Positions 31,458-60,149 are shown, counted from the stretch's first letter. The stretch is DNA of 64,000 nt from an uncultured Rickettsiales bacterium (GCA_950054255.1 CATLOR010000002.1:143106-207105); one strand, 5' to 3'. Numbers and translations are program-made. Notes: generated by a model from the letters alone, not told the origin.

Positions 31458-33959
31458 ATGAAGAATTACAAATCATCAGTTTCTGTGATTGCTATTTGTG
31501 CATTGTTATCTGTTCCAGCTCAGGCTGGTCTGTTTGATAGTGGTGACGAAGTATATGCAGAAGATATACAGCCATCATCAAAAGTTAGAATTATCGACGA
31601 AACCAAAGATGCCGTTCAGGCTGAATCGGATTCGGTTGTTTATATTCCACCTGAAAAAGGGATTGAAGTACCAGCTAAGACAAAAGCAACACAAGATCAA
31701 ATGTTGTTTAATCGTGTAGACAAAGTGGTTTCTGATACGGCGGATCTTGTTGATTCAAGTGAGAAAAAAGTTGATCTGATGGCGAAAGAGGCTGATAAAA
31801 AAGCTTCTGAAATAGAAACGCTTATGAAGCAAAAATCTCAAGAAGAACTTGATATGGCTGCGGAAGTCATTGAGCAAGCAGCAAGTGAAATGGAAGAAAG
31901 CACGACTTTCTTAACGCCGTCTAGTCAAGTCTCTCTAGGAAATGATATTAAAGAAGCGATTGCTGTTGATGAGATTGAGACAAAAGAGGCTGTTTTTAAA
32001 ACACCTAGAGATCGAGCAGAAGAGCTTAAGCAAGAATTATTACAAGATTTAAACCAAGCAAAAGAAACAAGAAAAGAATTGCTTGGTACAACTGTTGTTG
32101 AAAGAGAAATTCCAGAAGCGAAAATCGTGAAACCAGAAATGGAAGATGAAGAGGCTTCTGAATTAGCGAAAAATAAAGTCACTCCAGCTGTAAAAGCAAC
32201 AGAGCAAGCAAGTTCAATGGAAGAAAGTGCTGAAAAGCCGTTAACAGCGGAAGAACGCCACTCTCTTGAAGAGGCGGATAAAAGTCGCGCTTTAATTGCA
32301 CGTATTATTGCTGAGGGTAAGGCTCGTAAAGCTAAAAAGAGAGAAATAGAAATCGCAGAAAGAGAGCGTGAAGCGAAGAAAGCGATTGTTCAGGAGAATA
32401 AAACTACATTATTGCGTGCACCTCGCTGGAGTAAAACGCCTTCTGAAGAAAAAGCAGAGAGTCTATTTTCTCGTTTAGAAGAGCTGAAGCATAAGCCAAT
32501 TGAGGTAAAATCTCCTGATGTTGAGCGCGTTGATAAAGTTATGGCTGAATCAGAAAAGGCCATAGAGGATGTTGAAAAAGATATTCAGCTAACAGAGCCA
32601 GCAAAGTCTGTGAATGTTCGTGACCTTTATAAGGTAACAAAAGTTCAAGACAGAGATATGTCTTTGCCAGATGTTTCAAGTGATATTGCTGTTTCAAAAT
32701 CAGAAAAAAAAGCCGAGCTTAATGAACGCCATATGCAGGCTGACGATGTTCAAGGACAACATGATTTGGCTGATGATTCTATGATATTGAATACAGAGTC
32801 ATTTTTACTGTTGCCTGAATTAGCTGAAAATGTACGCCAACAACCTAACAAAGTCGTTGAAGCTAGGCATGAGAAAACACAGGCAAGTCAATCTTCTGAT
32901 GTAATGCAGAAGAAAAAACCTGTAGGTGGAATTTCCGGAGCGATTGCTTCTATGCCGGAAAATATGACAGTTAATCCAGATCGCACAGCTTCTTTAACGC
33001 CTGAATATAGATATAATCAGCCAAAAGTAGCTGCAGAGCCAAGAGAACCAATGTTTTCTGTTGGTGAAACAACTGTTGCACCCGAAGAAATCTCAGCTAT
33101 TCCAGTTGTGAGGGAAGGGGTGCAAGTAACAACAGGAGCGCCTTTATCAATTACAGATAAAAATACATCGGCTCCGACACCTGTTTATACAGAATTGCCG
33201 AAGATGAGCGATAATTTACCTTTGGAGCCAGTTTATGAGGCGCCAAGTAAGCCTGTTGTTTCTTCTAAGGTGTTAATGCAACAAGATAATCCAGCACAAA
33301 GCGCTGTGGAATCTCGTTTGAATACAATTGCAAATGAAAGACGTGTACAAGAGGCTGCACGTCAATATCAGCAAGCTCAAGCTTATGCGCAGCCACAGCC
33401 TCAAATGCAGCAGATACAACAACAGCCTGTTTATATGCAACAACCAGCTCCGAATGTAAATCGCCCTCGTTATTACTATATACCGACGATACAGCCGCAG
33501 CAGCAGCCAACTATGACGCAGGCTCAATATTATCAGATGCCACCTGTGCCAATGCAGCCACGTTTCTCACAAGCGGTAGCGCAGCAGCAAGCGGCTCAAT
33601 TAGCCGCATTAGCGCAACAACAAAGGCAAGCATCAAGATTGAGTAGTTTTTCACAAAATACGAATGCGACGAGAGCGTCTATCAATGTTGGATCACAGCT
33701 TGCGCCAACACAAGCGGTAACAGCAACATCGGCACGTGCATCGTCTTTTAATTCTATGCCAGATTATAGACGCCCAGTTAGAAAAAGAATGAGTTCTGAT
33801 TTTGTGACACGTTCTAGCTTATCTCAATTAGAGAAGCGTAAAAAGAAAACAGCAGCGGATCTTTCTGCTATTGATTTCAATGCAAGCCGGTATCCTGAAT
33901 ATACATCTGCAGTAGATGATGTATCTAATTCTGGTGTTCAACCTTTCTCTTCGCAATAG
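31458..33959 (+). CDS. secreted 833-aa low-complexity protein (E/K-rich, then Q/P-rich), function unknown
   Basis: Signal peptide (SVIAICALLSVPAQA). Acidic and lysine-rich helical middle. C-terminal third is rich in Q, P, M and Y (QPQPQMQQIQQQPVYMQQPAP...). Confidence 0.55.
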   Translation: MKNYKSSVSVIAICALLSVPAQAGLFDSGDEVYAEDIQPSSKVRIIDETKDAVQAESDSVVYIPPEKGIEVPAKTKATQDQMLFNRVDKVVSDTADLVDSSEKKVDLMAKEADKKASEIETLMKQKSQEELDMAAEVIEQAASEMEESTTFLTPSSQVSLGNDIKEAIAVDEIETKEAVFKTPRDRAEELKQELLQDLNQAKETRKELLGTTVVEREIPEAKIVKPEMEDEEASELAKNKVTPAVKATEQASSMEESAEKPLTAEERHSLEEADKSRALIARIIAEGKARKAKKREIEIAEREREAKKAIVQENKTTLLRAPRWSKTPSEEKAESLFSRLEELKHKPIEVKSPDVERVDKVMAESEKAIEDVEKDIQLTEPAKSVNVRDLYKVTKVQDRDMSLPDVSSDIAVSKSEKKAELNERHMQADDVQGQHDLADDSMILNTESFLLLPELAENVRQQPNKVVEARHEKTQASQSSDVMQKKKPVGGISGAIASMPENMTVNPDRTASLTPEYRYNQPKVAAEPREPMFSVGETTVAPEEISAIPVVREGVQVTTGAPLSITDKNTSAPTPVYTELPKMSDNLPLEPVYEAPSKPVVSSKVLMQQDNPAQSAVESRLNTIANERRVQEAARQYQQAQAYAQPQPQMQQIQQQPVYMQQPAPNVNRPRYYYIPTIQPQQQPTMTQAQYYQMPPVPMQPRFSQAVAQQQAAQLAALAQQQRQASRLSSFSQNTNATRASINVGSQLAPTQAVTATSARASSFNSMPDYRRPVRKRMSSDFVTRSSLSQLEKRKKKTAADLSAIDFNASRYPEYTSAVDDVSNSGVQPFSSQ

Positions 33960-36030: not shown

Positions 36031-36106
36031 GTCCCGTTCGTCTAGAGGCCTAGGACACCGCCCTTTCACGGCGGCAACACGGGTTCGAATCCCGTACGGG
36101 ATGCCA
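36031..36106 (+). tRNA. tRNA-Glu (anticodon TTC)
   Basis: Acceptor GTCCCGT/ACGGGAT, anticodon loop CTTTCAC, T-arm ACGGGTTCGAATCCCGT, 3' GCCA. Confidence 0.9.
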
Positions 36107-36184: not shown

Positions 36185-36427
36185 ATGGCTATTAACCCTA
36201 AGAATATACATCCTCACTATCATCAAAATATAAAAGGCTTGCAAAGCCAAGGGTATGACTTCCCAAAATCTGGGCAGATTCCACATCATCTTGAAAGGCT
36301 GTTTGGATCTTTAACATTCCTTATTAATGAAGAGGGAGATATAAAGTCAGTTAATCAGGCGACAGGAGAGGTTAAGGATGTGGTGCACACGCTCTATAAG
36401 CCCTTAAAGAGGCCATCAATAAAATAG
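36185..36427 (+). CDS. hypothetical 80-aa protein
   Basis: ORF only. AAAGGAAAAAAATG upstream context. No recognisable motif. Confidence 0.3.
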   Translation: MAINPKNIHPHYHQNIKGLQSQGYDFPKSGQIPHHLERLFGSLTFLINEEGDIKSVNQATGEVKDVVHTLYKPLKRPSIK

Positions 36428-36431
36428 AGTG

Positions 36432-36812
36432 TTAATTTTGGGAAAGTGTTACAAGTATTACACCTATAAAAATTAAAGCTTGCCCGATAATCAATTTTGC
36501 TGAATAAGTTTCTCCTAGAAATAAAAAACTTCCTAAAATGACAAGAATGAATGTGGTTGATAGGAATGGATAAGCATAGCTTAAATTAAATTTTGAAAGA
36601 CATATCAACCAAAGGGGTAAAACGAGTCCTGCGGCCACTAATCCTGAGAAAAGCCAAGGGTCTGTGATCATGCGCCAGATGAAAGGGATTACTTCTTTTA
36701 AAGAATTAACATGCGTGTCTAAATGCGTAATACGCCATTTTAAGATAAGCTGTGAATAGCTTAATAAGCATATGATAAGACCTAAAAGCCCGTGAGCTAG
36801 AACATGTGACAT
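36432..36812 (-). CDS. small 4-TM membrane protein, EamA/SMR-like (candidate undecaprenyl-phosphate-sugar flippase subunit)
   Basis: 126 aa with four hydrophobic helices. The C-terminal GE...GQALIFIGVILV pattern resembles DMT/SMR half-transporters such as ArnE/ArnF. Last gene of the GT2 cluster. Confidence 0.5.
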   Translation of the reverse strand: MSHVLAHGLLGLIICLLSYSQLILKWRITHLDTHVNSLKEVIPFIWRMITDPWLFSGLVAAGLVLPLWLICLSKFNLSYAYPFLSTTFILVILGSFLFLGETYSAKLIIGQALIFIGVILVTLSQN

Positions 36813-36833
36813 GTTTATAATGTTCCTTTTTTC

Positions 36834-37811
36834 TTATGTATTAATTTCGTCAAACTCATCATGGCCTTCAATCATTTGTTGTAAACGCATTTGACTGATT
36901 TGATCAGCAACTAGTCCCATCAACATGAATAAGACACCTAAGATGATTGTCATAGAGCCGGCTGTTGGAATGCCTGTTCCTTTAAACAGAACAAAAAATA
37001 AGCTGTATAAGAAACCTACAACCCCTAAAGCGAATCCAGCGGGAAGGAAAATACGCATTGGCGCAAAAAGCATTACAATTCTAAAGATAAGTAAAATCGT
37101 GTTGAAACCGTCTTTGAGCTTAACTTTACTTGTTCCAATCCGATCGTTGAGATCAATATCATGGAACGCAATGGGGTATTCACGCTCAAGCATAACCATT
37201 GTGCTTGTTGTGCTTGCAGAAAATTTGTCGGGTAAAATATTGTAATATTTTTCAATGATAGAACGTCTAAAGACCCGTAGTCCACAATTCAAATCCATAT
37301 TTGATTTAGAGTTAAATAAACGCGCAATCTGGCGTAAAACCCATTTACCAATGATGCGTGTGTTGTTGATCCCAGGGCTGTTACGTCTTGTTAGGACAGC
37401 GGCAAGGTTTTGATCTTGGATCATTTGAATGATTTTTACTAAATCATCACTTTTATGTTCGTTATCCGCATCAAACCAAGCAATATATTCTCGTGTAGCA
37501 ACACGCATACCTGTTTTTAAAGCAGAGCCGTAACCGCCATTGAATTTTCTTTTTATTAAGCGAATGCCTTTTACGGATTTAACACGTTCAACAGTGTTGT
37601 CTTTACTGCCATCATCAATAACAATGATTTCTGCATTCGGAACGGCTTTTTTTAAGCCTTTTAATGTAGGGGCAATACCATTTTCTTCGTTGTAAGCAGG
37701 AATAACAATACTAACATTTTTGCTGTAATCAAAGGGGGCTGTTTTTGCTTTTTTTGTAGTGGTTGTTTTAGAAGTTTTTTTCGTCGTTTTTGTCACAGTG
37801 TTTCTCTCCAA
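36834..37811 (-). CDS. family-2 glycosyltransferase with C-terminal TM helices (ArnC/GtrB/DPM1-like polyprenyl-phosphate glycosyltransferase)
   Basis: IVIPAYNEE, VIDDGSKD, FDADNEH (DxD), and two C-terminal TM segments. Confidence 0.8.
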   Translation of the reverse strand: MERNTVTKTTKKTSKTTTTKKAKTAPFDYSKNVSIVIPAYNEENGIAPTLKGLKKAVPNAEIIVIDDGSKDNTVERVKSVKGIRLIKRKFNGGYGSALKTGMRVATREYIAWFDADNEHKSDDLVKIIQMIQDQNLAAVLTRRNSPGINNTRIIGKWVLRQIARLFNSKSNMDLNCGLRVFRRSIIEKYYNILPDKFSASTTSTMVMLEREYPIAFHDIDLNDRIGTSKVKLKDGFNTILLIFRIVMLFAPMRIFLPAGFALGVVGFLYSLFFVLFKGTGIPTAGSMTIILGVLFMLMGLVADQISQMRLQQMIEGHDEFDEINT

Positions 37812-39673
37812 ATCGCGAAGTTAAGTAAAGTCCATAATAGGTATCCATGATTAGCTTTTTGAGCACAATGGTCAAGCCATATTTGTTCGATTTTATTTTC
37901 TTTAAGCCAAGGAGAAAACAGCTCTTTTTTCTCAAGAAAATATTCGTGTCCAAGAGGCTTTAGCTGATCTGAAAATAAAGAAACCAAAGGCACATTAAAT
38001 CCCTTTTTGGGAGCATTGATAATGGCATTACCAACTTGATGTTGTTTTAAGGCATGCCTTAAAAACCGTTTTTTCTCACCAAAAAAAGGTGTTAAAAGGT
38101 CGCTGGATAATTGGCCTGCAAATGTCATGATACGTTTGTCTAAAAAAGGAACTCTAATCTCTAAAGAATGTGCCATACTCATGGCATCACTTTTCATTAA
38201 CAGATCCCCAGGCAAGTAATGTGTTTGATCAGAAAGTAGATATTCGTCTATCCCTGATTGAGATGTTAAATCGTGATTGTAGTGTGAAAGTGGAGAGAAT
38301 AGGGCTGATGTTTTCATGCTGTCATCATATAAATGTGCCTGCATATTATGGCTCATAATACGACGCCATTGTGTATGAGGATGAATATGTGATTCTGCAA
38401 CGCCTGCCATAAACCTAGAAAGAATTTCACCGAAAGGAAGCCTTGATGCTTTTCCTCGATTAAGAAAATGTCCGAGTTTCTCTCCTTGTTTTGCAAAGAA
38501 AGAAGGCATGAAAGGAGAAATATGTTTTGCTACCTTTGATGCTTTGTATGTTGAATAGCCACCAAAAAACTCATCGCCTCCATCACCTGTTAGAGCAACA
38601 GTTACGTGTTTTCTTACTTCAGCACATAAATTATAAAAAGCAAGGCCACTTGAATCTGTTACTTGTCCATCATAATGATGGATCACTTTTCTAACGCTTG
38701 CTTCCAAATTATCATGATCATCAATTGTAAGAAGCGTTAAGGGATGACCTGTGTTGCTCGCAATTAGTTGCGCGAGATGTGATTCATCATGGCTTTTTTC
38801 TTTGAATGCGGCTGTAAAAAGAGGCACATTTTTGTCACGAGGGAGCGAGGTGCTAATAAGACTAGAGTCAATGCCACCGCTTTGTAAAACACCAATTGGG
38901 ACATCACTTATAAGCATATCATCTAGGACTTTAGGCCATAATTTTGCGAATTCTTCATGTGCTTCATGAATATTTTTAATGGTATTGGTACGTTTGGGTG
39001 TCCAGAATTTGTGTTCTTCTATTGCGCCCGTTTTAACATTTATTTTTATAAAAGAACCTGGTGCAACTTGGTGAATATTTTTAATTAAGCTTGAATTAGG
39101 ATCAACATAACCTTGAGCAAAGTAGCTGTGTAGGCTATCTGGATTAATTTCTTTTTCACATTCGCTATGCGCTAATAAGGCTTTTAATTCACTTCCAAAA
39201 AGAAGTGTGGATTCATTTTTAAAATAATAGAGAGGTTTAATACCTATAGGATCTCTTACGAGGTAAACGGTGTCGGAGCTTTGATCGTGAAGTGCAATTG
39301 AAAACATGCCTTCAAGCTCTTTAACGATATCTATGCCATGGGCTCGGTAAGCAGGGCAAATCATTTCACTATCACAGGCAGATTTGAACTGAATACCATG
39401 TTCATTTTCTAATTTTTGTTTGATAAAGGAGTCATTATAAATTTCACCATTAAAAACCATCGCAATCGTTTTATCATTTGAAAACATTGGTTGTTGTCCC
39501 AATGGAGATAAATCTCGAATAGCTAATCTTCTATGACCAAAAGCAACATTTTTATTAAGATAAAACCCCTCAGCATCGGGGCCTCTATGTGCAATCGCAT
39601 CACACATCTTCTTTAATTCTTTTTTATCTGCTTTTTGCGATGAAAAATGAATGATTCCAGCAATACCGCACAT
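37793..39673 (-). CDS. asparagine synthase (glutamine-hydrolysing) family amidotransferase
   Basis: N-terminal MCGIAG nucleophile and PP-loop SGGIDSS. 626 aa. Confidence 0.85.
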   Translation of the reverse strand: MCGIAGIIHFSSQKADKKELKKMCDAIAHRGPDAEGFYLNKNVAFGHRRLAIRDLSPLGQQPMFSNDKTIAMVFNGEIYNDSFIKQKLENEHGIQFKSACDSEMICPAYRAHGIDIVKELEGMFSIALHDQSSDTVYLVRDPIGIKPLYYFKNESTLLFGSELKALLAHSECEKEINPDSLHSYFAQGYVDPNSSLIKNIHQVAPGSFIKINVKTGAIEEHKFWTPKRTNTIKNIHEAHEEFAKLWPKVLDDMLISDVPIGVLQSGGIDSSLISTSLPRDKNVPLFTAAFKEKSHDESHLAQLIASNTGHPLTLLTIDDHDNLEASVRKVIHHYDGQVTDSSGLAFYNLCAEVRKHVTVALTGDGGDEFFGGYSTYKASKVAKHISPFMPSFFAKQGEKLGHFLNRGKASRLPFGEILSRFMAGVAESHIHPHTQWRRIMSHNMQAHLYDDSMKTSALFSPLSHYNHDLTSQSGIDEYLLSDQTHYLPGDLLMKSDAMSMAHSLEIRVPFLDKRIMTFAGQLSSDLLTPFFGEKKRFLRHALKQHQVGNAIINAPKKGFNVPLVSLFSDQLKPLGHEYFLEKKELFSPWLKENKIEQIWLDHCAQKANHGYLLWTLLNFAIWRETL

Positions 39674-39691
39674 GAAAATAATAATCCTTTT

Positions 39692-40474
39692 TTAAGATGC
39701 CTTTTTGCTTGCTTTAGGCGTGCTTATTGCTATTGGGGTGTAACTCTTTAAATATTCAAGAGCGCGAGATTTATTTGGGTTTTTTGCGGCGATATAAGCA
39801 TAAAGACTCAAATGTTTCCCAGGAATTGGAAAGTAGTGAATGGTAACGTCACTGAAGAAATAGCGTGTCAAGTTAAGCATTTCATCTATATCGTTAATAT
39901 GCTCATGTTCCATAAGGGTTTTATACGATATTTTGTTTCTTAAATAGTAACCAAGCCCTGTTGTTAGACGCCATCCTAATCCCCATAAAAAACCACCTTC
40001 ACTAGGGATTCCTGCTTGAAAAGAGCCGTCTTTCTTTAGGAGAAGGCAAGAACGTGCTAAATTATAAGGTAGTTCTTCTAGGTGTTCTAAAACAGCTACA
40101 GAAATGATGCGGTCATAGACGTGTGTTTCATCAGGTAGAAGCCCCATATCGTCATATACATGTCTTATTTGGTCTAGCTTAGGGTTATTCGTATATAAAT
40201 GTTTAAAAGGTTCTATAATGTCGTAAGCGCCGTTATTTTTTTCGTGTTTGAGCTGGTTTAGGGTTCCTGCTCCAATTTCTAATGTCGTGGGTGCGTTATA
40301 TGAATGGGATGCAACCTGTTTATGCATCCAGCTTTCTGCGCGTTGTGCTAATCCTCTAATAAAGCCTTCACCATCTCTATTCTCTTTATATTCTTTTGCA
40401 AAAATATCTTTGTGTTTTTGTGTCAGAGGAGGGCGTTTTTTGGGGTATTTGTTTAATAAGGATTCTATATTCAT
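39692..40474 (-). CDS. class I SAM-dependent methyltransferase
   Basis: Motif I-like LEIGAGTLN. 260 aa. 4-nt overlap with the upstream gene. Confidence 0.6.
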   Translation of the reverse strand: MNIESLLNKYPKKRPPLTQKHKDIFAKEYKENRDGEGFIRGLAQRAESWMHKQVASHSYNAPTTLEIGAGTLNQLKHEKNNGAYDIIEPFKHLYTNNPKLDQIRHVYDDMGLLPDETHVYDRIISVAVLEHLEELPYNLARSCLLLKKDGSFQAGIPSEGGFLWGLGWRLTTGLGYYLRNKISYKTLMEHEHINDIDEMLNLTRYFFSDVTIHYFPIPGKHLSLYAYIAAKNPNKSRALEYLKSYTPIAISTPKASKKAS

Positions 40475-42093
40475 TTTTTAACCTTAAATAATATTCTATT
40501 GTCTGTTTTAAATATCGGCTCAGCATACGCATTTAGAAGCGGGATGAGAAGCTCTTTTTTCTTAACTGTTGTATCAAAATAAATAAACTGCGCATTGGTT
40601 TCTTTTAGTAGTTCTTGTATTTTCTCCTCGGCACTTTCTCTGTCTGGTGATTTCAATAACTCGATTTTAGTTGTTTGGATTACCTCCCATTTTGAGTATG
40701 TTGAACTGTTTGTATAAATGAGAAAGTTTCTATCTTTTCGTGTGTAAGCAATTGGCTGATAAGCTTGGTATCGGAATGCAAGAGATTCGATGTCCATAAA
40801 TTTATCATTTCCAATAGGAAGAACTGGTTCTTTTAGGTTAAGGTTTTTTATAAAATTTATATGCTTTTGATTTTCTGCGCTATATGTCATTAAGGCATTA
40901 AGTTCAACAGCGCGATGCTCTTTTAATGTGGGTCTAATGAAGTAATGTAGGGGGTTTTTGTAAGCAACCAAAATCATGAATGCAGCAAATAAATAAACCC
41001 CAACCTTTTTGAAATCAGAGCATAAATAAATAATCCCAATAAGTGAGAGTGGGTAAATAAAACGCATATTGCGAATGAGATCAAATTGTAAAGGTGCTCT
41101 ATCAAACTGTTCAGCAATAAATTGATCAAATGTAGCAAGTCCAAGAGAGCCCAATATGATACCTGTTAAATATAGGCAAAGGAGATTTGCTTCATCGGAT
41201 TTACTTTTATAAAATCCTATATATCCTAAGATAATAACGGCCCAATCGAGTTTAGAGTTGAAAATAAGAGAAAGCGCATAATGACTATCTTGAAAATATT
41301 TTCCCACATGCGTATTAAGCATGCCCTCATTCATTGTATTGTCGTGTACAAAGGCGCTAAAATAGAGGTATATAAAAGGGGTTAAGAGGGCTATAAAAAA
41401 CAAAGAATTAAGAGTAAGATATTTTATGCGTTCCATCCATTTTTCATGGATATCAAAGGGCTTAAATAAAAGAGTGAAACCCAAGGAAAAGGCGAGTGTT
41501 GGAATGCTTACTGTGTGAAAATAAAAAGCAATTGAGAGCATTAAGAAAAGGAGCCACCAACGCGCTTTTTGATTTTCAAATTTTAAGAGAAAAATTAAGA
41601 AAAAAGGCAAGAAAGCGTTTACAAAAACGCGTGATATTGCCTCATAACTATATATGCCCCAATATTCTCCACCGCCAATATTAATATAAACAAGATTAGA
41701 GAGCGCTAAAATCAAAGCATAAGTTTGTTTTTGTGGAAATAAATAAAGGCCTAACCGATAAAAGCCACTCATCTGAAAATATAACAAAGGTATTATCAAT
41801 AAGTGAAATGAAAGCCCAATGTCTTGAGTGAAATGTGTGAGTATATAACCTATAGGAAGAAGAGCACTGATATAGAATTCATAGTTTTTAGGGTTTGAAT
41901 ATAGTAGGTCTTTTGCAAAAGATTCTTGATCAAACCATGTGGCAAGTATAGAAGCCACATTTCCCGCATCACTGCTTAAGAGTATATAGGGAGATGTGGT
42001 TTGAAATAGGAATGGGTAAGCAAAAAATGAAATTGCTATAATAAGAAATAGAAACGCTATTAAAAAAGGTTTTATGTGTGTGGTTTTTGTCAT
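40471..42093 (-). CDS. polytopic membrane protein (candidate GT-C-type glycosyltransferase or polymerase)
   Basis: About 540 aa with at least 10 predicted TM helices followed by a soluble C-terminal ~130 aa. First gene of the cluster. ATG at 42093 is preferred over the TTG at 42132. Confidence 0.5.
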   Translation of the reverse strand: MTKTTHIKPFLIAFLFLIIAISFFAYPFLFQTTSPYILLSSDAGNVASILATWFDQESFAKDLLYSNPKNYEFYISALLPIGYILTHFTQDIGLSFHLLIIPLLYFQMSGFYRLGLYLFPQKQTYALILALSNLVYINIGGGEYWGIYSYEAISRVFVNAFLPFFLIFLLKFENQKARWWLLFLMLSIAFYFHTVSIPTLAFSLGFTLLFKPFDIHEKWMERIKYLTLNSLFFIALLTPFIYLYFSAFVHDNTMNEGMLNTHVGKYFQDSHYALSLIFNSKLDWAVIILGYIGFYKSKSDEANLLCLYLTGIILGSLGLATFDQFIAEQFDRAPLQFDLIRNMRFIYPLSLIGIIYLCSDFKKVGVYLFAAFMILVAYKNPLHYFIRPTLKEHRAVELNALMTYSAENQKHINFIKNLNLKEPVLPIGNDKFMDIESLAFRYQAYQPIAYTRKDRNFLIYTNSSTYSKWEVIQTTKIELLKSPDRESAEEKIQELLKETNAQFIYFDTTVKKKELLIPLLNAYAEPIFKTDNRILFKVKK

Positions 42094-42200
42094 GTTTTTA
42101 AAGCTTCTTTTTATTTTCTCTTGAAGAATCAAAATTATCGTAAAAGAATAGAGTAACTATACACAGAGTTCTTTAATTCAAATAAGGGTTTTTTATCATT

Positions 42201-42983
42201 ATGATCTCAGGATTGAAAAAATATTGTTTATTGGCGGCTTTGTCAGCCTCAATTTGTTTACCAACTTATACTGCACAGGCTGAGGATCTTGATTACCATC
42301 AAGGCGGATATACATTCCCTGGAGAGTTCACGCTTTCACTCGCTTTGGCAAGTGAATATTCTTTTAGGGGGCTTTCTTATACAAATGAAGAACCAGCTTA
42401 TCAAGGATCTTTAGACTATAAGCATGAAACAGGCTTTTATTTAGGTGTGTGGGCAAGCTCTGTGGATTTAGGGACAACTCGTGATGAGGTATCTAGCGAA
42501 GTTGATTTCTATACAGGGATGTTATTTGATTTAGGCGCAGGTGTTACTTGGGATCTTGGTGCAACATATTACATGTATCCTGGTTCAAGTGATATTAGAA
42601 ACAGTTATAATTTCTATGAATATCGTACATCTCTTCAAAGAGATTTTGGTGTTTTTGATGCTAAAGCCGGTGTGCATTATGCACCCAACTTTTTTGGTGA
42701 CTCAGGAAACGCGGTTTATTCATATATAGATGCAAATGTGCCTATTTATGATGATTTCTATGGTACATTACATTACGGCTATCAAACGATTGCAAGAGAA
42801 CAGGCAAATTTCGGCTATCCTAACTATGGAGAATGGTCTGCTGGGGTTGGTTATGATGTGTATGGATTCTCGTTCAACGCTTTTTATCATGATACAGATC
42901 TTGATGAAAACACATGTAATGATCGTTGTAATGGATCAGTTACATTTAGCGTTGGCCGTACATTCACATTGTGGAGTAAGTAA
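42201..42983 (+). CDS. TorF-family putative outer-membrane porin (TIGR02001-like)
   Basis: Signal peptide ending AQA. Beta-strand-rich, aromatic-rich, terminal W-S-K. GEFTLSLALASEYSFRGLSYTNEEPAYQGSLDY resembles that family as I remember it. Confidence 0.6.
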   Translation: MISGLKKYCLLAALSASICLPTYTAQAEDLDYHQGGYTFPGEFTLSLALASEYSFRGLSYTNEEPAYQGSLDYKHETGFYLGVWASSVDLGTTRDEVSSEVDFYTGMLFDLGAGVTWDLGATYYMYPGSSDIRNSYNFYEYRTSLQRDFGVFDAKAGVHYAPNFFGDSGNAVYSYIDANVPIYDDFYGTLHYGYQTIAREQANFGYPNYGEWSAGVGYDVYGFSFNAFYHDTDLDENTCNDRCNGSVTFSVGRTFTLWSK

Positions 42984-45520: not shown

Positions 45521-46326
45521 GGTGATGTCAGACTAAATCGAACTATTCTCCAAAAGCATACTACGTCAAGTTTTAGGCTACAAGAATTTCATTCCACGCA
45601 TCAAGCGAGGATTGTCTTAAATCTTTAAATGTGTCTCTTTTTTCGTTGTGTCTTTCGTGATTAAAATAGTTTTGGAATTGCGATTGTATCGCGGTGAATT
45701 TTTGAAGGGATCCCATTGATCGGAACCTGTTCATGATTTTTTCTCGCCGTCGAAAATGGAGGTGAGAGTTTTCAACTAAGTTGTTTTTATAGCGTGTCGT
45801 ATTTTGTGAAAATTTCATATTCATGCGCTGTAAAGCAGCACCATAAGAGCCCAATTTATCTGTAATAATTTCTCTTGGTTTCCCGTGTTGTGAGACTAGT
45901 TTCTTAAGCACCTTAAGGGCGGCACGCCGATCCCGCTTTTTCGTTACGTAACAATCTAAAACCGTTCCTTCATGGTCAATCGCTCGCCATAAGTAATGTA
46001 ACTCACCATTAATTTTGACGAATACCTCGTCGATGTGCCATCGCCATTTCGATGGGGCATGGCTACGTTTTTTCTTTAGCTCTTTGGCAATAATGGGACC
46101 CAGATGGTTCCACCAATATCGAACCGTTTCATGACAAATATCAATACCACGTTCATACAAAATATCTTCAACATTTCGTAAGCTGAGTGGATAACGAACG
46201 TAATATTGCACAGCTAATTTGATGATTTCAGGGCTGGTTTTATAGTATTTAAAGGGATCTATTTTACTCATATCAGATTTTATCATGTTATATTTTTCAA
46301 AAACATCGTTTTAATCTGACAAGACC
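45521..46326 (-). mobile_element. IS6-family insertion sequence, copy 1 (806 bp)
   Basis: Terminal inverted repeats GGTGATGTCAGACTAAATCGA (45521...) and GGTCTTGTCAGATTAAAACGA (reverse complement ending at 46326). Single transposase ORF. Confidence 0.9.
45573..46286 (-). CDS. IS6-family transposase (DDE)
   Basis: 237 aa, the size and sequence style of IS26/IS6 Tnp (WRWHIDEVFVKINGELHYLWRAIDHEG..., ITDKLGSYGAA...NNLVENSH). Confidence 0.9.
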   Translation of the reverse strand: MIKSDMSKIDPFKYYKTSPEIIKLAVQYYVRYPLSLRNVEDILYERGIDICHETVRYWWNHLGPIIAKELKKKRSHAPSKWRWHIDEVFVKINGELHYLWRAIDHEGTVLDCYVTKKRDRRAALKVLKKLVSQHGKPREIITDKLGSYGAALQRMNMKFSQNTTRYKNNLVENSHLHFRRREKIMNRFRSMGSLQKFTAIQSQFQNYFNHERHNEKRDTFKDLRQSSLDAWNEILVA

Positions 46327-46641
46327 ATTTTGACAAATATCTCGTCGATGTGCCATCGCCATTTCGAAGGTGCATGGTTACGTTTTTTCTTTAGCTCTTT
46401 TGCAATAATAGGACCTAAATGATTCCACCAATAACGAACCGTCTCATGACAAATATCAATGCCACGCTCATGCAAAATGTCTTCAACATTTCGCAGACTA
46501 AGCGGATAACGAACGTAATATTGTACCGCTAGTTTGATAATTTCAGGACTGGTTTTATAGTATTTGAAAGGATCTATTTTGCTCATAAGTAAGTCTATCA
46601 TGAACAGAATTAGGAAAACGTTATTTTAGTCTGACAAGACC
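46327..46641 (-). mobile_element. truncated older IS6-family copy (upstream IR plus 5' ~270 nt of tnp), interrupted by copy 1
   Basis: Own IR GGTCTTGTCAGACTAAAATAACG (reverse complement ending at 46641). The 96-aa ORF 46311-46601 matches Tnp residues 1 to ~90, then reads into the IR of copy 1 (...FVKMVLSD stop). Its nucleotide sequence is diverged from copy 1. Confidence 0.85.
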
Positions 46642-46654
46642 CTCATGGTTAGCC

Positions 46655-48835
46655 TCATATTTTTGTTAAATTTAAACGCAGCGCATTGCCGACTACGCTG
46701 ACGGAACTCAGCGACATGGCGGCAGCGGCGAAAATGGGTGAGAGTAAAATCCCGAAGACCGGATACAAAACACCTGCGGCAATCGGCACGCCCGCAGCGT
46801 TATAGATAAACGCGAAAAACAGGTTCTGCCGGATATTGCGCATGGTGGCGCGGGAGAGATTGATCGCCTCGGCAATACCGTTTAAATCACCGCGCAGCAG
46901 CGTTACGCCCGCGCTTTCCATGGCAACATCGGTTCCGGTTCCCATGGCAATACCGACATGCGCAGCCGCCAGTGCGGGCGCATCATTCACACCGTCTCCG
47001 GCCATGGCCACGACTGCGCCTTTATCACGCAGCTCTCCGACAATGCGGCTTTTATCCTCCGGCATTACATCGGCATGCACTTCATCAATGCCGAGCTTTT
47101 CTGCCACCGCGCGGGCGGTCGTTTCGTTATCTCCGGTCAGCATCACGATCTTTAAACCCGCTTTATGAAGGTTTTGAATAGCCTCCGGCGTGGTATCTTT
47201 GATCGGGTCGGAGACGGCAATAACGCCCGCCGCCTTGCCGTTCACGGCCACAAACATGGCTGTCGCGCCTTGCGCCCGTAAATTATCCGCTCCTTCCGTA
47301 AGGGGCGTTATATCCGCGCCTATGGCTTCCATCATTTTACTGTTACCAAGCGCGACCTTGGCACCGCTGACCTGACCTTTCACGCCTTTGCCTGTTATGG
47401 CCTCAAAATCCAGCGCTTTGGGCAATTCCAGATCCTGATCATGGGCGGCGCGGACAATCGCCTCGGCCAGCGGGTGTTCACTGCCTTGTTCCAACGCCGC
47501 AGAAATGGTGAGCAACTCGCTCTCCTCAAAGCCGTCTGCAGTGATAATATCGGTCAGGGCCGGTCGGCCTTGTGTGAGCGTTCCTGTTTTATCGACAATC
47601 AGCGTGTCCACCTTTTCCATGGTTTCCAGCGCTTCGGCGTCTTTGATCAAAACACCAGCCTTTGCGCCGCGACCGACGCCCACCATAATCGACATGGGCG
47701 TGGCCAGTCCCAAAGCGCACGGACAGGCGATAATCAAAACGCTGACGGCGGCAATCAAGGCGTAGCTAAAGGCCGGAGCTGGGCCAACCAGCGACCAGAC
47801 AATAAAGGCGATGATGGCGATCACAATGACAATCGGCACAAACCAGCCCGCGACGAGGTCGGCCATGCGCTGAATAGGAGCGCGGCTCCGCTGCGCGTCC
47901 GCCACCATTTTAACGATCTGCGCCAGCATCGTATCGCGCCCGACTTTTTCAGCGCGGATAATGATCGAGCCGTTGGCGTTGACCGTGGCTCCTATAACCT
48001 TGGATCCGGCCTGTTTTTCGACAGGCATCGGTTCGCCTGTGACCATGGATTCATCAATATGGCTGCTGCCTTCACTCACAACGCCGTCCACTGGCACTTT
48101 TTCGCCTGGACGGATCCGCAAATGGTCACCGACCTGAATATCTTCGATGGCAATTTCCTGCGCATCGCCGTTGTCATCAATCCGGTGTGCGGTTTTGGGG
48201 GCCAGCCCCAGCAAGGCTTTAATCGCACCGCCTGTGCGTTCCCGCGCTTTAAGCTCCAGTATTTGCCCCAGCAAGACCAAAGTCACGATCACCGCCGCCG
48301 CTTCAAAATATACTGGCACTGCGCCGCTTTCGCCCCTGAAGGAATCGGGGAAGATATCCGGCGTGACAGTTGCCGCAACGCTGTAAATCCACGCTACGCC
48401 CGTTCCCATAGCGATCAGTGTGAACATATTGAGGTTGCGGCTTTTGACCGATGCCCAGCCGCGTTCAAAGAACGGCCAGCCCGCCCATAAAACAACAGGC
48501 GTGGCGAGGACAAGCTGGATCCAGTTGGAAGTCGTGCCGTCCATAAACTCATGAAAGCCCAGCAAGTGAGATCCCATCTCCAGAATAAAGACCGGAATGG
48601 TGAGGATCAGACCGACCCAGAACCGTCGCCTGAAATCCGTCAGATCTGGGTTTTCGCCTTCATCGCCCGTCATCGTTTCCGGCTCAAGCGCCATGCCGCA
48701 TATGGGGCAAGTCCCAGGGCCTTTTTGAATGACCTCTGGGTGCATCGGGCAGATATAGGTGATCTCGTTCGGATCCACGCCCTCTGGCAGCGGAGCTGGC
48801 TCTTTATGCTCGTGGCTGTGGCAACAATCGCTCAT
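46655..48835 (-). CDS. copA: copper/silver-translocating P1B-type ATPase
   Basis: CPC ([13 protein letters not shown]), [21 protein letters not shown]. The N-terminus has CCHSHEH and a CPMHPEV...CPICGM zinc-ribbon-like metal-binding motif instead of a classical GMTCxxC HMA domain. Confidence 0.9.
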
Positions 48836-48838
48836 GGT

Positions 48839-50164
48839 TTATTCCTTTTCTTCTTTGTAATGTTTGAGGAAGATACGCTCTCCGGCGAAAATGAAGATCA
48901 TCGCCGCAATAGAGACATAAATAACCAGCATGTCGCTTTGCGCTTTCATCCATAAAAACGCGCCCAGCACCACCACATCCATGACGATGGCGGTGATTAG
49001 CACAAAGGCGTTGGCATTGATCTTGTGGCGCAAATACCGAAACACGCCCCAATGGACGGCTATATCCATGACGAGGTAGAAAATAGCGCCCAGCGATGCG
49101 ATCCGGCTGAGATCAAAAAATATGGTCAGGAACATGGCCAGTGCAATCGTGTACACCAGCGTATGTTTTTGAATGTCACCAGGCATCCCGAAATGGCTGT
49201 GCGGCACCAGCTTCATATCGGTGAGCATCGCCAGCATGCGTGAGACGGCAAAAGCACTGGCAATCACGCCGGAGACGGTGGCTATAATCGCCAGCACGAC
49301 CGTAAACCACAGGCCGAAATCACCAAAGGCCGGACGCGCTGCTTCCGCCAGGGCGAAGTTTTTCGCCGCGATAATTTCCGGCAGCGATAAATTCATCGAC
49401 ACCGCCATAGCGACCAGAAAGTAAACAACCACGCAAATTACAATGGAGAGAATAATCGCCCGCCCAACATTGCGGTGCGGATCCACAATCTCCGAGCCGC
49501 TATTGGTGATGGTGGTAAAGCCTTTATAGGCAAGAATGGCCAGAGCTACTGCCGCCAAAAACCCGACAGCGCTGCCGCTGTCTGCGGGCGCAGCGGTCAT
49601 GTTTTCAAAAGAAATGCCGGAAATCCATAGCCCCGCAATCCCGAATGCGGCAATCCCGCCGATCTTTAAGAGCGACATGACAAAGGAAAACGTCCCGATC
49701 ATGCGGTTGCCGGAAATGTTGATGATGAAGGCGAAGATTAATAATCCCACGCCAAGCGCCGGAACGAGCCAGCTATTCTGGTCGATATCAAAGAGCTGTA
49801 GGGTATAGGTGCCAAAGGTGCGGGCCACTAGGCTCTCATTGATGACCATGGAGAAATACATCAATAGCCCGCAAGCGGCTGTAATGGTGCCTTTGCCATA
49901 GGCTTTTTCTAAAAACATGGCGATCCCGCCCGCAGATGGGAACGCATTGGACATTTTCACATAGGAATAAGCGCTAAACGCGGTAATGACCGCTGCCACC
50001 AAAAATGCGAGAGGAAAGTGCGGGCCGGCCAGCTCCGCAATTTGTCCGGTCAGGGCGAAAATTCCTGCGCCAATAATCACGGCTGTCCCCATAGAGACAG
50101 CCCCGATCAGGCTTAAGCTGTTTTCTTTATACTGCGCGGCTTTGCCGTGTTGTGAATGATCCAT
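48839..50164 (-). CDS. APC-superfamily permease (amino acid/polyamine type)
   Basis: 441 aa, about 12 TM, glycine-rich helices typical of the APC fold. Sits 3 nt upstream of copA. Confidence 0.7.
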   Translation of the reverse strand: MDHSQHGKAAQYKENSLSLIGAVSMGTAVIIGAGIFALTGQIAELAGPHFPLAFLVAAVITAFSAYSYVKMSNAFPSAGGIAMFLEKAYGKGTITAACGLLMYFSMVINESLVARTFGTYTLQLFDIDQNSWLVPALGVGLLIFAFIINISGNRMIGTFSFVMSLLKIGGIAAFGIAGLWISGISFENMTAAPADSGSAVGFLAAVALAILAYKGFTTITNSGSEIVDPHRNVGRAIILSIVICVVVYFLVAMAVSMNLSLPEIIAAKNFALAEAARPAFGDFGLWFTVVLAIIATVSGVIASAFAVSRMLAMLTDMKLVPHSHFGMPGDIQKHTLVYTIALAMFLTIFFDLSRIASLGAIFYLVMDIAVHWGVFRYLRHKINANAFVLITAIVMDVVVLGAFLWMKAQSDMLVIYVSIAAMIFIFAGERIFLKHYKEEKE

Positions 50165-50329
50165 TTAGTTTTTACTGCCGCAGCAACCTCCTTGTTTTTC
50201 AGCCTTGTCTGTGTCCGGCTTTTTGGCTTCGCCGTCACAGCAACCGTCTTTTTCTTTTTCCGGCTGGCTGTGATCGTGATGTTTATCGCCGCCGCAACAG
50301 CCGCCGTCTTTGTGATCGTGATGGGTCAT
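50165..50329 (-). CDS. 54-aa Cys-Cys/His-rich putative metal-binding peptide (not in the ORF track)
   Basis: Hand translation: MTHHDHKDGGCCGGDKHHDHSQPEKEKDGCCDGEAKKPDTDKAEKQGGCCGSKN. The ATG overlaps the ICMT stop (ATGA). AAGGAG lies ~9 nt upstream. The stop abuts the APC start codon. Confidence 0.55.
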   Translation of the reverse strand: MTHHDHKDGGCCGGDKHHDHSQPEKEKDGCCDGEAKKPDTDKAEKQGGCCGSKN

Positions 50330-50988
50330 GATGATGCTCCTTTAGTGGTTGGGGTTGATGAAAACTTGGGAATAAAGGCCGGAACATGGGCGGCGTAATC
50401 GTCCCATGCCTTGCCGAAACGCTCCCTTGAATCCTGCTCTTCTTTTTTGGCCAGCCGGATATACATGAAAGTCAAAATCGGGAACAGCACCACGGTCGGG
50501 ATGGTCGGCCATTGCAGCAAAAACCCGAACATAATGGCGATAAAGCCGATATATTGCGGGTGCCGGACTTTTTGATATAAGCCCGCGACCGCCATTTTTC
50601 CGGCGCGTTGAGCTTTGAATAAAACAGGCCATGCCGCCGAGAGAACCCAGAAACCGCCGCCAATAAAGACAAAGCTGGCGAGATGCATCGGATCAAAGTG
50701 CGGGTTGCCTTCAAAGCCCAGGATTGTGTTCCAGAGATGCCCGTTTTCGTGCGTTGTAAAATCAACGCCTGGGTATTTCTCTGCCAGCCAGCCGGACATG
50801 AGATAGATGGTCAGCGGGAAGCCGTACATTTCCGTGAACAGCGCCACCAGAAAACCGGAGAACGCGCCGAAGCTGCGCCAGTCGGCCTTGGTCTGCGGTT
50901 TGGCAAAGCTGAAAGCAAAGATAATGAAAATCAGCGAGTTTAAAATAACCAGGCTCCAGAGGCCGTATGATTGCATTGCATGTTCCAT
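50326..50988 (-). CDS. isoprenylcysteine carboxyl methyltransferase (ICMT)/PEMT-family membrane methyltransferase (CzcN/NccN-like)
   Basis: 220 aa, multi-TM. GLYQKVRHPQYIGFIAIMFGFLLQWPT is the family signature. Confidence 0.75.
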   Translation of the reverse strand: MEHAMQSYGLWSLVILNSLIFIIFAFSFAKPQTKADWRSFGAFSGFLVALFTEMYGFPLTIYLMSGWLAEKYPGVDFTTHENGHLWNTILGFEGNPHFDPMHLASFVFIGGGFWVLSAAWPVLFKAQRAGKMAVAGLYQKVRHPQYIGFIAIMFGFLLQWPTIPTVVLFPILTFMYIRLAKKEEQDSRERFGKAWDDYAAHVPAFIPKFSSTPTTKGASS

Positions 50989-50991
50989 GAT

Positions 50992-51237
50992 TTAGTCCTC
51001 TTTATCCTTGTCTTTATGATCGCCATGCCCGCCGTGACTGCCATGCATAAACACATGGATCAAAGGGCAAGCCAGCAGGATCAGCCATATCCAGTTATTG
51101 CCGATATGCGCGGCATGTTCCTGAATGAGAAGATACGCGGCCACCGCGAAAAAGAAGATGCACGCCATGCCGAACGGTGTTTTCCACCATGGCTTGGTCT
51201 TCTCCGGTTTGTGGTAATGCTCGTGCTCGTGATCCAT
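50992..51237 (-). CDS. DUF2933-family small membrane protein, His-rich
   Basis: 81 aa, two TM. LLACPLIHVFMHGSHGGHGDH matches the DUF2933 pattern as I remember it. Confidence 0.65.
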   Translation of the reverse strand: MDHEHEHYHKPEKTKPWWKTPFGMACIFFFAVAAYLLIQEHAAHIGNNWIWLILLACPLIHVFMHGSHGGHGDHKDKDKED

Positions 51238-51240
51238 TGT

Positions 51241-51663
51241 TTAATCTCCTTTGTGCTTATGATTTGAATGTAAAAACGTAACTATCGGGCAATCGCTCAA
51301 AGGCAGATCGCCGCCTGGACACTCCGCCGCCAGATCTTCGAGGCTTCTTTTCATCGCCATAAGATCCTCGATATCTTTTTGGGCTTCGGTAATTTTGGTT
51401 TCTGTAAGATCCAGCATGTCCTGCGCAGTACCGCCGTCTGATGCGTGTAATTCAAGAAGGGATTGGATTTCCGAGAGCTTAAAGCCCAAAGACTTAGCGC
51501 GTTTGATGAAGGCTACCCGCGCGACAGACGCAGCATCATAAAGTCTGTAGCCAGAACTTGTCCGACCAACAGGCTCGATGAGCTTCAGCGTTTCATAATA
51601 ACGGATCGTATCCGTTCTCACGCCGCTTTCTCTTGCTAATTGTCCAATCGTCATATCTGCCAT
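51241..51663 (-). CDS. MerR-family heavy-metal-responsive regulator (CueR/HmrR-like)
   Basis: N-terminal wHTH (MTIGQLARESGVRTDTIRYYE), dimerisation helix, C-terminal metal loop CPGGDLPLSDCP. No Cys at the position that typifies divalent-metal sensors. Confidence 0.85.
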   Translation of the reverse strand: MADMTIGQLARESGVRTDTIRYYETLKLIEPVGRTSSGYRLYDAASVARVAFIKRAKSLGFKLSEIQSLLELHASDGGTAQDMLDLTETKITEAQKDIEDLMAMKRSLEDLAAECPGGDLPLSDCPIVTFLHSNHKHKGD

Positions 51664-51686
51664 TATTCAATCCTTATATTTGGGAG

Positions 51687-51716
51687 CGTATACCTTGGAG
51701 TATGCTCCAAGGTCAA
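51687..51716 (-). promoter_or_regulatory. MerR-type operator/promoter
   Basis: Minus strand reads TTGACC-TTGGAGCATACTCCAAGG-TATACG. There is a perfect 9-bp dyad ACCTTGGAG-N4-CTCCAAGGT (51692-51713) overlapping the -35, with an 18-19 nt spacer. The layout parallels the E. coli PcopA CueR site (TTGACCTTCC...GGAAGGT). Confidence 0.65.
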
Positions 51717-51720
51717 GCCC

Positions 51721-52296
51721 TTAATGCGGATGCCCGCTGTGATCATCGTGATCACCTTGATCACCGTGCGGGTCTGCTTCTGCCGCGCCGTGGTGTCCTG
51801 CGCCAGCATCCTCACCATGCGCGTGGCTTCCATGACCGCCATCGCCAGAGATTTCCGGCATACGCATCACGCCCATGCCGTGGCGGTAAACGACTTCGCC
51901 GCCCTTATATCCGGTCACGGCCAACAAGCCGGAGGCCAGCAAGATCAAAACAACAAAGCCGGAGCTGACGGATTTTGCGCCGCGATGTTTGGCCAGCGAC
52001 CATATCGCCAGAACGCCGAATATGGACGCTGTTACCAGCGCCCAATTCTTATGGTCAGTCATGGCCGCGTGGGATGGGCCGTCATGCGCCACGGTGTTAT
52101 AGGCATAGAAACCAGCCAAAACCGTACCGACTGTGATGCCAGCACCAATCCAGAGATTCCACCGCGCGACAATCAGAAGGTTCGGCCTCCTTAAAACCAG
52201 TCCGGCCAGATAAAGCAGCGATGACAGGCTTAAGAGTGCCACCGTGAAATGCACAAAGATTGGGTGCCAATTTGGTATGATTTCTATGTCCATCAT
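51721..52296 (-). CDS. DUF2231-family membrane protein with His-rich C-terminal tail
   Basis: N-terminal NWHPIFVHFTVAL motif, 4 TM, tail GGHGSHAHGEDAGAGHHGAAEADPHGDQGDHDDHSGHPH. Confidence 0.6.
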   Translation of the reverse strand: MMDIEIIPNWHPIFVHFTVALLSLSSLLYLAGLVLRRPNLLIVARWNLWIGAGITVGTVLAGFYAYNTVAHDGPSHAAMTDHKNWALVTASIFGVLAIWSLAKHRGAKSVSSGFVVLILLASGLLAVTGYKGGEVVYRHGMGVMRMPEISGDGGHGSHAHGEDAGAGHHGAAEADPHGDQGDHDDHSGHPH

Positions 52297-52311
52297 TGTT
52301 TTAGTCCTCTC

Positions 52312-59572: not shown

Positions 59573-59625
59573 GGTCTGATCTCCTTTTGGTTAAGCGAAA
59601 AGCGCATAACAAAATGCACTTAGCG

Positions 59626-59648
59626 CCCGTCATATTTCCAATGACAGG
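59626..59648. promoter_or_regulatory. candidate operator dyad upstream of cusC
   Basis: CCCGTCAT-ATTTCCA-ATGACAGG (7 of 8 matching arms), 54-76 nt upstream of the cusC ATG. The TGTCAT/ATGAC half-sites recall copper-box elements, but in a different arrangement. Confidence 0.3.
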
Positions 59649-59669
59649 CACACTAAAAGATATCCGTAT

Positions 59670-60077: not shown

Positions 60078-60149
60078 CTAAATAGTTAAATTTCAACTTT
60101 AATTATTTTATTCGTAATCTAAGTCAATTGGTTACTCTTTAGTTTCAAA

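Follow-up and report, generated by a model that had tools for sequence, protein, structure and literature searches.

A five-gene cluster of an uncultured Rickettsiales bacterium with a predicted three-component glycosylation system, an AsnB-type amidotransferase and a methyltransferase

We analyzed a 64,000-nucleotide stretch of genomic DNA from an uncultured Rickettsiales bacterium (GCA_950054255.1, CATLOR010000002.1:143106-207105; hereafter the window, with positions counted from its first letter) and focused on a compact cluster of five genes that occupies 5.7 kb at positions 36432-42132. The cluster fairly likely encodes a three-component periplasmic glycosylation system, in which the lipid-linked donor would probably be a hexuronate that is converted to a methylated uronamide. 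Systems of this kind combine an enzyme that charges polyprenyl phosphate with a sugar, a flippase and a GT-C transferase (PMC11127046). All five open reading frames (ORFs) are directed the same way on the minus strand:

40471..42093 (-), 540 residues, polytopic membrane protein; predicted GT-C fold glycosyltransferase with an alpha/beta soluble C-terminal domain
39692..40474 (-), 260 residues, soluble; predicted class I S-adenosylmethionine (SAM)-dependent methyltransferase
37793..39673 (-), 626 residues, soluble; AsnB-type, glutamine-dependent amidotransferase
36834..37796 (-), 320 residues; polyprenyl-phosphate glycosyltransferase-like GT2 enzyme with a C-terminal transmembrane hairpin
36432..36812 (-), 126 residues; small SMR/DMT-type protein with four transmembrane segments

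Two of the gene starts deserve a comment. Read mechanically, the GT-C ORF extends over 553 residues from a TTG at 42132; translation likely begins at the ATG at position 42093, and the resulting 540-residue protein is identical to the database protein P0001, as called in public assemblies. Similarly, the mechanical GT2 ORF has 325 residues from a TTG at 37811, and in public assemblies the protein has 320 residues and starts with the GTG at 37796. The spacing of the five genes is operon-like. The GT-C and methyltransferase genes overlap by 4 nucleotides (ATGA), as do the AsnB and GT2 genes (GTGA), and the two remaining gaps measure 18 nucleotides (methyltransferase to AsnB) and 21 nucleotides (GT2 to the small gene). 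The original prediction, made from the sequence alone, had described five co-directional, overlapping minus-strand genes for a polytopic protein of about 540 residues with a soluble C-terminal domain, a SAM methyltransferase, an AsnB-type glutamine amidotransferase, a GT2 enzyme with C-terminal transmembrane anchors and an EamA/SMR-like protein with four transmembrane segments. All five ORFs were found where it had placed them and, as detailed below, all five proteins agree with their descriptions, with the small one matching its families at sub-threshold scores. Overlap holds for two of the four junctions and not for the other two.

The large protein is predicted, from its structural model, to be a GT-C fold glycosyltransferase, and we propose it as the periplasmic transferase. 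It has many hydrophobic segments and, at the C-terminus, an alpha/beta domain of roughly 150 residues, and it matches neither Pfam, even at E ≤ 10, nor NCBIfam. Its alignment profile also gave no match to PDB sequences at E ≤ 10. In an AlphaFold (AF2) model derived from six sequences (pTM 0.80, pLDDT 77.8), the membrane part is helical and the alpha/beta domain begins at about residue 435. Comparison of the fold with GT-C enzymes had been set beforehand as the test on which the idea could fail; in the Foldseek search against the PDB, all seven matches at E ≤ 1e-4 turned out to be GT-C glycosyltransferases (AftA, STT3 and DPY19). The top match is AftA (E 1.4e-5, TM-score 0.51); four STT3 entries are among the matches, and ALG3 and AftD come next in the list. 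Transporters appear only at E ≥ 0.1 with TM-scores near 0.1. Thus, the protein resembles AftA (GT85), STT3/PglB (GT66) and DPY19 (GT98) in its GT-C fold (Foldseek E 1e-5 to 1e-4), in a long first extracytoplasmic loop with conserved Asp and in the presence of a C-terminal soluble domain. It differs from them in that no sequence homology is detectable even by profile.

An exhaustive hidden Markov model search collected 755 representatives of this family, 383 of them at E ≤ 1e-30. Residue conservation was derived from an alignment of 154 family representatives (numbering of the 540-residue protein). At least 94% conserved are D42, D62, W145, G146, R155, H193, R341, R344, R441, Y442, D454 and W469. 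Among these, D42 and D62, located in the long loop after the first transmembrane segment, reach 99% across the family, and R441, Y442, D454 and W469 lie within the soluble domain. In GT-C enzymes of known structure (ArnT, PglB and PMT) the catalytic acidic residues are found in the first extracytoplasmic loop. The large protein probably represents a separate, unclassified GT-C family. Neither the GT-C query nor a three-sequence alignment found a relative among the genome contigs searched, and tblastn of the GT-C and methyltransferase proteins against plasmids gave no match.

The GT2 enzyme carries the PF00535 domain (7e-33) and, judging from its sequence, appears to be a polyprenyl-phosphate-charging glycosyltransferase of the DPMS/GtrB/ArnC type with a C-terminal transmembrane hairpin. 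In full-length alignments, residues 31-299, including the hairpin region, match ArnC (9hwj, 9bhc and 8vxh), Pyrococcus DPMS (5mlz) and GtrB (5ekp), with 1.3e-13 for ArnC 9hwj and only 3e-6 for GtrB sll0501. The DDG and DAD motifs are present, the hydrophobic segments fall at about residues 236-308 and the C-terminal 90 residues as a whole are hydrophobic. The best NCBIfam families are AglJ, PpgS and ArnC, all with scores under the equivalog cutoffs. These three families and PgfS, which is also among the best curated ones, are all polyprenyl-phosphate sugar synthases. With the GT2 of one distant locus (L006) the window protein shares 34% identity over the full length, hairpin included. The first ~30 codons of the gene encode a K/T-rich low-complexity N-terminal tail (TKTTKKTSKTTTTKKAKT), which is missing from the distant homologues; their sequences begin at the position of residue 33.

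From its sequence, the 126-residue protein is proposed to flip the lipid-linked sugar. Four of its segments are hydrophobic, the protein is conserved in both close relatives, and it aligns with ArnF nearly over the full length (1e-11, residues 14-123 with 7-118 of 120). Matches to ArnE (5.7e-8) and EamA (1.8e-4) were also found; all three are below the curated cutoffs. The protein matches EamA and ArnF, not GtrA (PF04138), and has no relative in the PDB. In two distant loci the slot of the small protein is occupied by a PF03706 (LPG_synthase_TM, MprF-flippase-like) protein (L006 13310-14185 and L007 7933-8889), which suggests a non-orthologous replacement of the flippase. Flippases are known to come from different families in three-component systems, namely GtrA, SMR and MATE (PMC11127046).

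Taken together, the alignment of the GT2 enzyme with ArnC, DPMS and GtrB, the ArnF/ArnE-like small protein and the GT-C fold of the large one support the logic of the Arn and Gtr systems, in line with the original prediction, which had likened the cluster to ArnC/ArnEF/ArnT and GtrB/GtrA/GtrC. The cluster nevertheless belongs to neither pathway. It shares with Arn an ArnC-like GT2, an ArnF/ArnE-like protein, a periplasmic GT-C step and, in concept, the modification of the sugar while on undecaprenyl phosphate, as by ArnD. Unlike in Arn, however, the GT2 reaches only 60.3 bits against the ArnC equivalog cutoff of 529 (NF007986), there is a single small protein instead of the ArnE/ArnF pair, the GT-C is without the ArnT/PMT_2 (GT83) signature, and no ArnA, ArnB or ArnD-like gene is present in the cluster or among the annotated ORFs of the window. 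As for the Gtr pathway, the small protein is not GtrA and the GT2 is no close homologue of GtrB.

A broader comparison includes GtrA/GtrB/GtrC together with the pentofuranose system of Citrobacter youngae (PMC11127046). These systems and the present cluster have in common a charging enzyme of GT2 type or equivalent, a small or medium-sized membrane protein as flippase, which in the present cluster is a candidate, and a GT-C, all encoded side by side. As in the pentofuranose systems, the lipid-linked sugar seems to be modified by additional enzymes, and the putative flippase can come from different families. The differences are that the small protein here is ArnF/ArnE-like instead of GtrA (PF04138) or MATE, that the GT-C is covered by neither a Pfam nor an NCBIfam model and is without a sequence relative in the PDB, and that tailoring would fall to an amidotransferase of AsnB type and to a SAM methyltransferase, which we did not find described for any such system. 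A precedent for a uronic acid comes from rhizobia, in which RgtE, a bactoprenyl-phosphate galacturonic acid (GalA) transferase, supplies the bactoprenyl-phosphate-GalA donor and RgtA-D and RgtF add GalA to the lipopolysaccharide (LPS) core and lipid A (PMC7663294). In that system an ArnC-like GT2 loads the uronic acid onto polyprenyl phosphate, and GT-C enzymes transfer it in the periplasm. In contrast to the large protein considered here, the Rgt transferases are ArnT-like; the Rgt system has neither an amidotransferase nor a methyltransferase, and in the present cluster the uronate is a candidate substrate.

To what extent the five genes stay together was assessed by comparing gene neighbourhoods, for which only about 20 loci were examined; grouping at 60% GT-C identity gave nine lineages (<60% between lineages). 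In two relatives, with GT-C proteins 59% and 51% identical, the complete set of five is preserved in unchanged order, flanked by RecJ on one side and porin/CorA on the other. The GT-C, GT2, AsnB and methyltransferase genes occur together in 8 of the 9 lineages; in the ninth (L014/L020) the GT-C gene is followed by a methyltransferase gene and then by the contig end. Three gene orders were observed. The order of the window is GT-C, methyltransferase, AsnB, GT2 and SMR. At L006 the GT-C gene is followed by AsnB, methyltransferase, GT2 and the PF03706 (LPG_synthase_TM) flippase-like gene. The third order, GT-C, GT2, AsnB and then one or two methyltransferases, is present at L007, L010, L015, L017, L018, L019 and L021. 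GT-C identity between the three deep branches carrying the gene set is 22-28%, and the GC content of the loci ranges from 0.38 to 0.63, so that several phyla are probably involved. The presence of the same five genes in the two relatives and of the core set in distant lineages is more than could be attributed to chance.

What is conserved across the distant lineages is the functional category and not the methyltransferase itself: the methyltransferases of distant loci belong to a different class I subfamily, which rules out a single orthologous four-gene module. The filling of both the flippase and the methyltransferase slots by non-orthologous proteins is expected if functions, rather than particular genes, are required. 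At two loci the GT-C homologue stands beside rows of three to five genes for large (500-830 residues) membrane proteins without Pfam matches (L005 1-10496; L015 233-9797 and 15726-17708). The L015 row includes a second paralogue of the GT-C family (30% identical), and one of the L005 neighbours has a weak DUF6020 match. The large unannotated L005 neighbours were also considered as AsnB candidates and ruled out, as they have no AsnB domains.

The amidotransferase is composed of GATase_7/GATase_6 and Asn_synthase domains (5.6e-67) and features the N-terminal Cys2, the NGEIYN motif and the SGGIDS PP-loop. With these elements intact, the protein should be a working glutamine- and ATP-dependent carboxylate amidase. 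Its best NCBIfam family is TIGR03108 (eps_aminotran_1; 421.5 bits, residues 1-620 aligned with 1-622 of 628). The same family is the best one for the AsnB homologues at all six loci tested, with scores of 520-620 bits at the distant loci. The generic asparagine synthase model TIGR01536 is passed as well (398.6 bits, cutoff 267.1), whereas the AsnB equivalog NF006949 fails (242.8 bits in three stretches, cutoff 499). The best solved relative is the hydroxyamidotransferase 7ylz (3e-47). Among the members of eps_aminotran_1 are WbpS, WbqG and PGN_1234, enzymes that turn uronic acids into uronamides (PMC7468200). The window protein is similar to these three in its AsnB-type architecture, its length (~626 residues) and its full-length alignment. 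It differs in reaching about half of the TIGR03108 trusted cutoff, and WbpS, WbqG and PGN_1234 act in cytoplasmic O-antigen or Wbp nucleotide-sugar/repeat-unit pathways, not beside a trio of GT2, GT-C and flippase.

Both the amidotransferase and the methyltransferase are without transmembrane segments and therefore are expected to be cytoplasmic. According to its model, the methyltransferase is a class I SAM-dependent enzyme, with a Rossmann-like fold, motif I and the acidic residue after strand 2. It has no Pfam or NCBIfam match at 0.01; sub-threshold Pfam matches are Methyltransf_23, Methyltransf_12 and Methyltransf_11 (E 0.02-0.06, residues 63-152). The AF2 model, based on 40 homologues, has a pLDDT of 90.8, and Foldseek matched it to over 1000 class I methyltransferase structures (probability 1.0) without singling out a specific subfamily. 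Motif I (LEIGAGT; L65-E66-x-G68-x-G70) and D85 are invariant across the 40 homologues. The family is unnamed, unusually conserved and extends across phyla with ~2000 clusters, the identity being roughly 50%; a profile scan of viral contigs with the methyltransferase alignment gave no match. In a metagenome-assembled genome (MAG) of Korobacteraceae a methyltransferase of this type (L022 10001-10753, L023 1397-2149) adjoins a DUF362 protein and two polytopic proteins of 509 residues. We considered the latter as possible GT-C family members, and hmmsearch and hhalign revealed no relation.

Building on what was established, namely the nature and fold of each of the five proteins, the operon layout and the persistent linkage of the genes, we infer a pathway for the system, including its lipid carrier, sugar, uronamide chemistry, step order and acceptor. 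At the cytoplasmic face of the membrane, the GT2 enzyme would load undecaprenyl phosphate with a sugar taken from a nucleotide sugar; the sugar would most likely be a hexuronic acid or an N-acetylhexuronic acid (HexNAcA), supplied, for example, as UDP-hexuronate. The AsnB-type enzyme would adenylate the sugar carboxylate and use glutamine-derived ammonia to form a neutral uronamide, and the class I methyltransferase would add a methyl group, probably by O-methylation. This tailoring may take place either before or after loading. The ArnF/ArnE-like protein would then flip the lipid-linked sugar, probably as a homodimer, and in the periplasm the 540-residue GT-C would attach it to an acceptor of the envelope, which may be LPS/lipid A, another glycan or a protein. 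Catalysis by the GT-C may involve the conserved first-loop aspartates, with conserved Arg and His residues holding the carrier phosphate. The first (GT2) and the last (GT-C) steps are based on homology and fold. For the uronate on a polyprenyl phosphate the precedent is RgtE (PMC7663294), and lipid-linked sugars of pentofuranose three-component systems are tailored before flipping, by dephosphorylation and epimerisation (PMC11127046). The idea that the amidotransferase and the methyltransferase modify the transferred sugar, which was part of the original prediction, gains support from their kept linkage to GT-C and GT2 across lineages and from the closeness of AsnB to eps_aminotran_1. Also in keeping with the proposed system, several distant loci are embedded in polysaccharide gene clusters (described below).

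Several observations weigh against this interpretation. The amidotransferase scores 421.5 bits against the eps_aminotran_1 cutoff of 816.9, which exceeds its score with the generic asparagine synthase model by only ~23 bits, and in view of these scores the uronamide assignment is no more than the closest analogy. A gene for a UDP-sugar dehydrogenase or for another uronate-pathway enzyme was found neither in the cluster nor elsewhere in the 64-kb window. The flippase assignment of the small protein rests on sub-threshold matches, and the GT-C fold matches are modest, with TM-scores of 0.42-0.51 at 10-12% identity. Outer members of the GT-C family (P0005, P0031, P0075 and P0152) are without AsnB and GT2 neighbours, so the association marks a clade and not the whole family. 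The methyltransferases of the window group and of the distant loci, which carry other class I methyltransferases, are not orthologous; moreover, the window-type methyltransferase occurs in an acidobacterial MAG without AsnB, GT2 or this GT-C.

Part of these observations might be explained if the machinery were the same and the chemistry performed by AsnB and the methyltransferase were something other than the formation of a methylated uronamide. For example, the nucleotide sugar could be tailored prior to loading, the carboxylate of an N-acyl or amino-acid group could be amidated, or an N-methylated amide or amidine could be built. The AsnB score under the eps_aminotran_1 cutoff, the uronate-pathway gene not found nearby and the swapping of methyltransferase subfamilies between lineages all agree with such a possibility, as does the hydroxyamidotransferase 7ylz being the best solved relative, which indicates that the AsnB family accepts varied substrates. 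We still consider it unlikely, since among AsnB relatives eps_aminotran_1 is the best family at each of the six loci tested and an intact glutaminase domain suggests that the nucleophile is ammonia. In addition, acetamidino groups normally come from WbuX/PseA-type N-acetyl sugar amidotransferases and not from AsnB-type enzymes (PMC10607449).

Another question is what the GT-C modifies. Its top fold matches are AftA, which primes arabinan, and STT3, the catalytic subunit in protein N-glycosylation, and it is without similarity to ArnT/PMT_2. It could therefore be a protein glycosyltransferase similar to oligosaccharyltransferase or PMT, or an AftA-like polymer elongator, instead of a modifier of LPS or lipid A. 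The conservation of R441, Y442, D454 and W469 in the soluble domain suggests a specific acceptor site. Several distant loci, moreover, are located inside polysaccharide clusters that encode Wzm/Wzt with a Wzt_C domain, GT2 enzymes, DegT and an epimerase, as well as a hexapeptide acyltransferase and a PMT_2 GT-C. However, fold similarity at a TM-score of ~0.5 cannot separate acceptor types, the operon encodes no acceptor candidate, and STT3/PglB use pyrophosphate-linked oligosaccharides as donors, whereas the GT2 linked to our GT-C is of the monophosphate-sugar type. Overall, such a role of the GT-C in place of LPS or lipid A modification seems quite unlikely.

Finally, it is highly improbable that the genes are mere neighbours without a shared pathway, AsnB being a housekeeping asparagine synthetase and the methyltransferase unrelated: AsnB does pass TIGR01536 (398.6 versus 267.1) and the window-type methyltransferase family is found elsewhere without these partners, but AsnB fails the AsnB equivalog (242.8 versus 499), start and stop codons overlap, and the genes stay linked in 8 of the 9 lineages through three gene orders and down to 22-28% GT-C identity.

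The three-component glycosylation system with a lipid-linked uronamide thus remains our preferred interpretation of the cluster. On the chromosome, the cluster is flanked by the following features:

36031..36106 (+), tRNA-Glu (UUC), detected by both ARAGORN and Rfam; convergent with the 3' end of the operon and outside the system
42201..42983 (+), putative porin TorF/Gcw_chp (PF09694 1.1e-40, TIGR02001 1.5e-46); divergent from the GT-C gene

Between the tRNA gene and the operon there is an orphan ORF of 80 residues (36185-36427, plus strand) without Pfam or NCBIfam matches. It is called as a gene (79 residues) in the related lineage L008 and is absent from L002. As originally described, the cluster adjoins both the tRNA-Glu and the orphan ORF, which are immediately downstream of its last gene. 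We considered a recent island inserted at tRNA-Glu and ruled it out: the GC content of the cluster (0.34-0.39) is like that of the surrounding chromosome, and relatives 51-59% identical preserve the RecJ-cluster-porin-CorA synteny. The porin keeps its place next to the cluster in close relatives only (L001, L002 and L008) and is absent at distant loci, so any functional tie to the system is hypothetical. A promoter and terminator scan gave fewer promoter-like sites than in shuffled sequence. The wider window contains housekeeping genes, including those for IF-2, NusA, TruB, MetK, Lnt, a MiaB-like protein, PhoH, PhaC and RecJ.

Elsewhere in the window, two IS6/IS240-family transposase genes of the same orientation (45573-46286 and 60238-60951; 94.6% identical over 811 bp) bracket a segment with a GC content of 52-57%, compared with 34-43% in the rest of the window. 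Within it are genes for a heavy-metal P-type ATPase, an amino-acid permease and a CusF-like protein, as well as for an RND pump, its CusB-like adaptor and its outer-membrane factor. The region 45573-60951 looks like a composite transposon with copper/silver efflux genes from a donor of higher GC content. It has no close match in PLSDB, and the nearest plasmid relatives of the IS6 transposase are alphaproteobacterial at ≤59% identity, too weak for taxonomy. Two long ORFs on the plus strand, 15860-19699 (1279 residues) and 31458-33959 (833 residues), are without Pfam matches at 1e-5; the C-terminal half of the 833-residue protein is Q/P/A-rich with low-complexity runs.

Periplasmic addition of single sugars from polyprenyl-phosphate donors alters serotype, phage susceptibility and resistance to cationic peptides. 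Examples of such sugars are 4-amino-4-deoxyarabinose, galactosamine, glucosamine, glucose, GalA and pentofuranoses. The general scheme is known; the combination of enzymes and the family of the large transferase appear to be undescribed. The original prediction did not recognize the combination as a known pathway. In full-text literature searches, no GT2/flippase/GT-C system was found to be combined with an amidotransferase of AsnB type plus a methyltransferase, which is weak evidence as most subscription journals are outside the coverage. In its most complete form, the proposal would comprise an undecaprenyl-phosphate-linked methylated hexuronamide as a donor of a class not described before, its synthesis at the membrane by the AsnB-type enzyme and the methyltransferase, its periplasmic transfer by a new GT-C family, a distribution over several phyla and interchangeable flippases and methyltransferases; in this entirety it is tentative, possible but somewhat doubtful.

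If true, an amidated and methylated donor would be a new chemical type among the few known, and AsnB-type enzymes would be seen to cooperate with a lipid-carrier system. It would also mean that a GT-C family of ~750 clusters at 50% identity, for which the libraries searched contain neither a Pfam nor an NCBIfam model, is defined as new, and it would imply an envelope decorated with a charge-neutralised uronic acid. The compact five-gene operon, separable from the other glycan genes of the genome, is convenient for reconstitution in E. coli. Should the product prove to be an ordinary sugar on LPS, the cluster would be only a modest extension of known systems. A lipid-linked uronamide, if confirmed, would not be conceptually surprising and yet would be a real addition to bacterial glycobiology.

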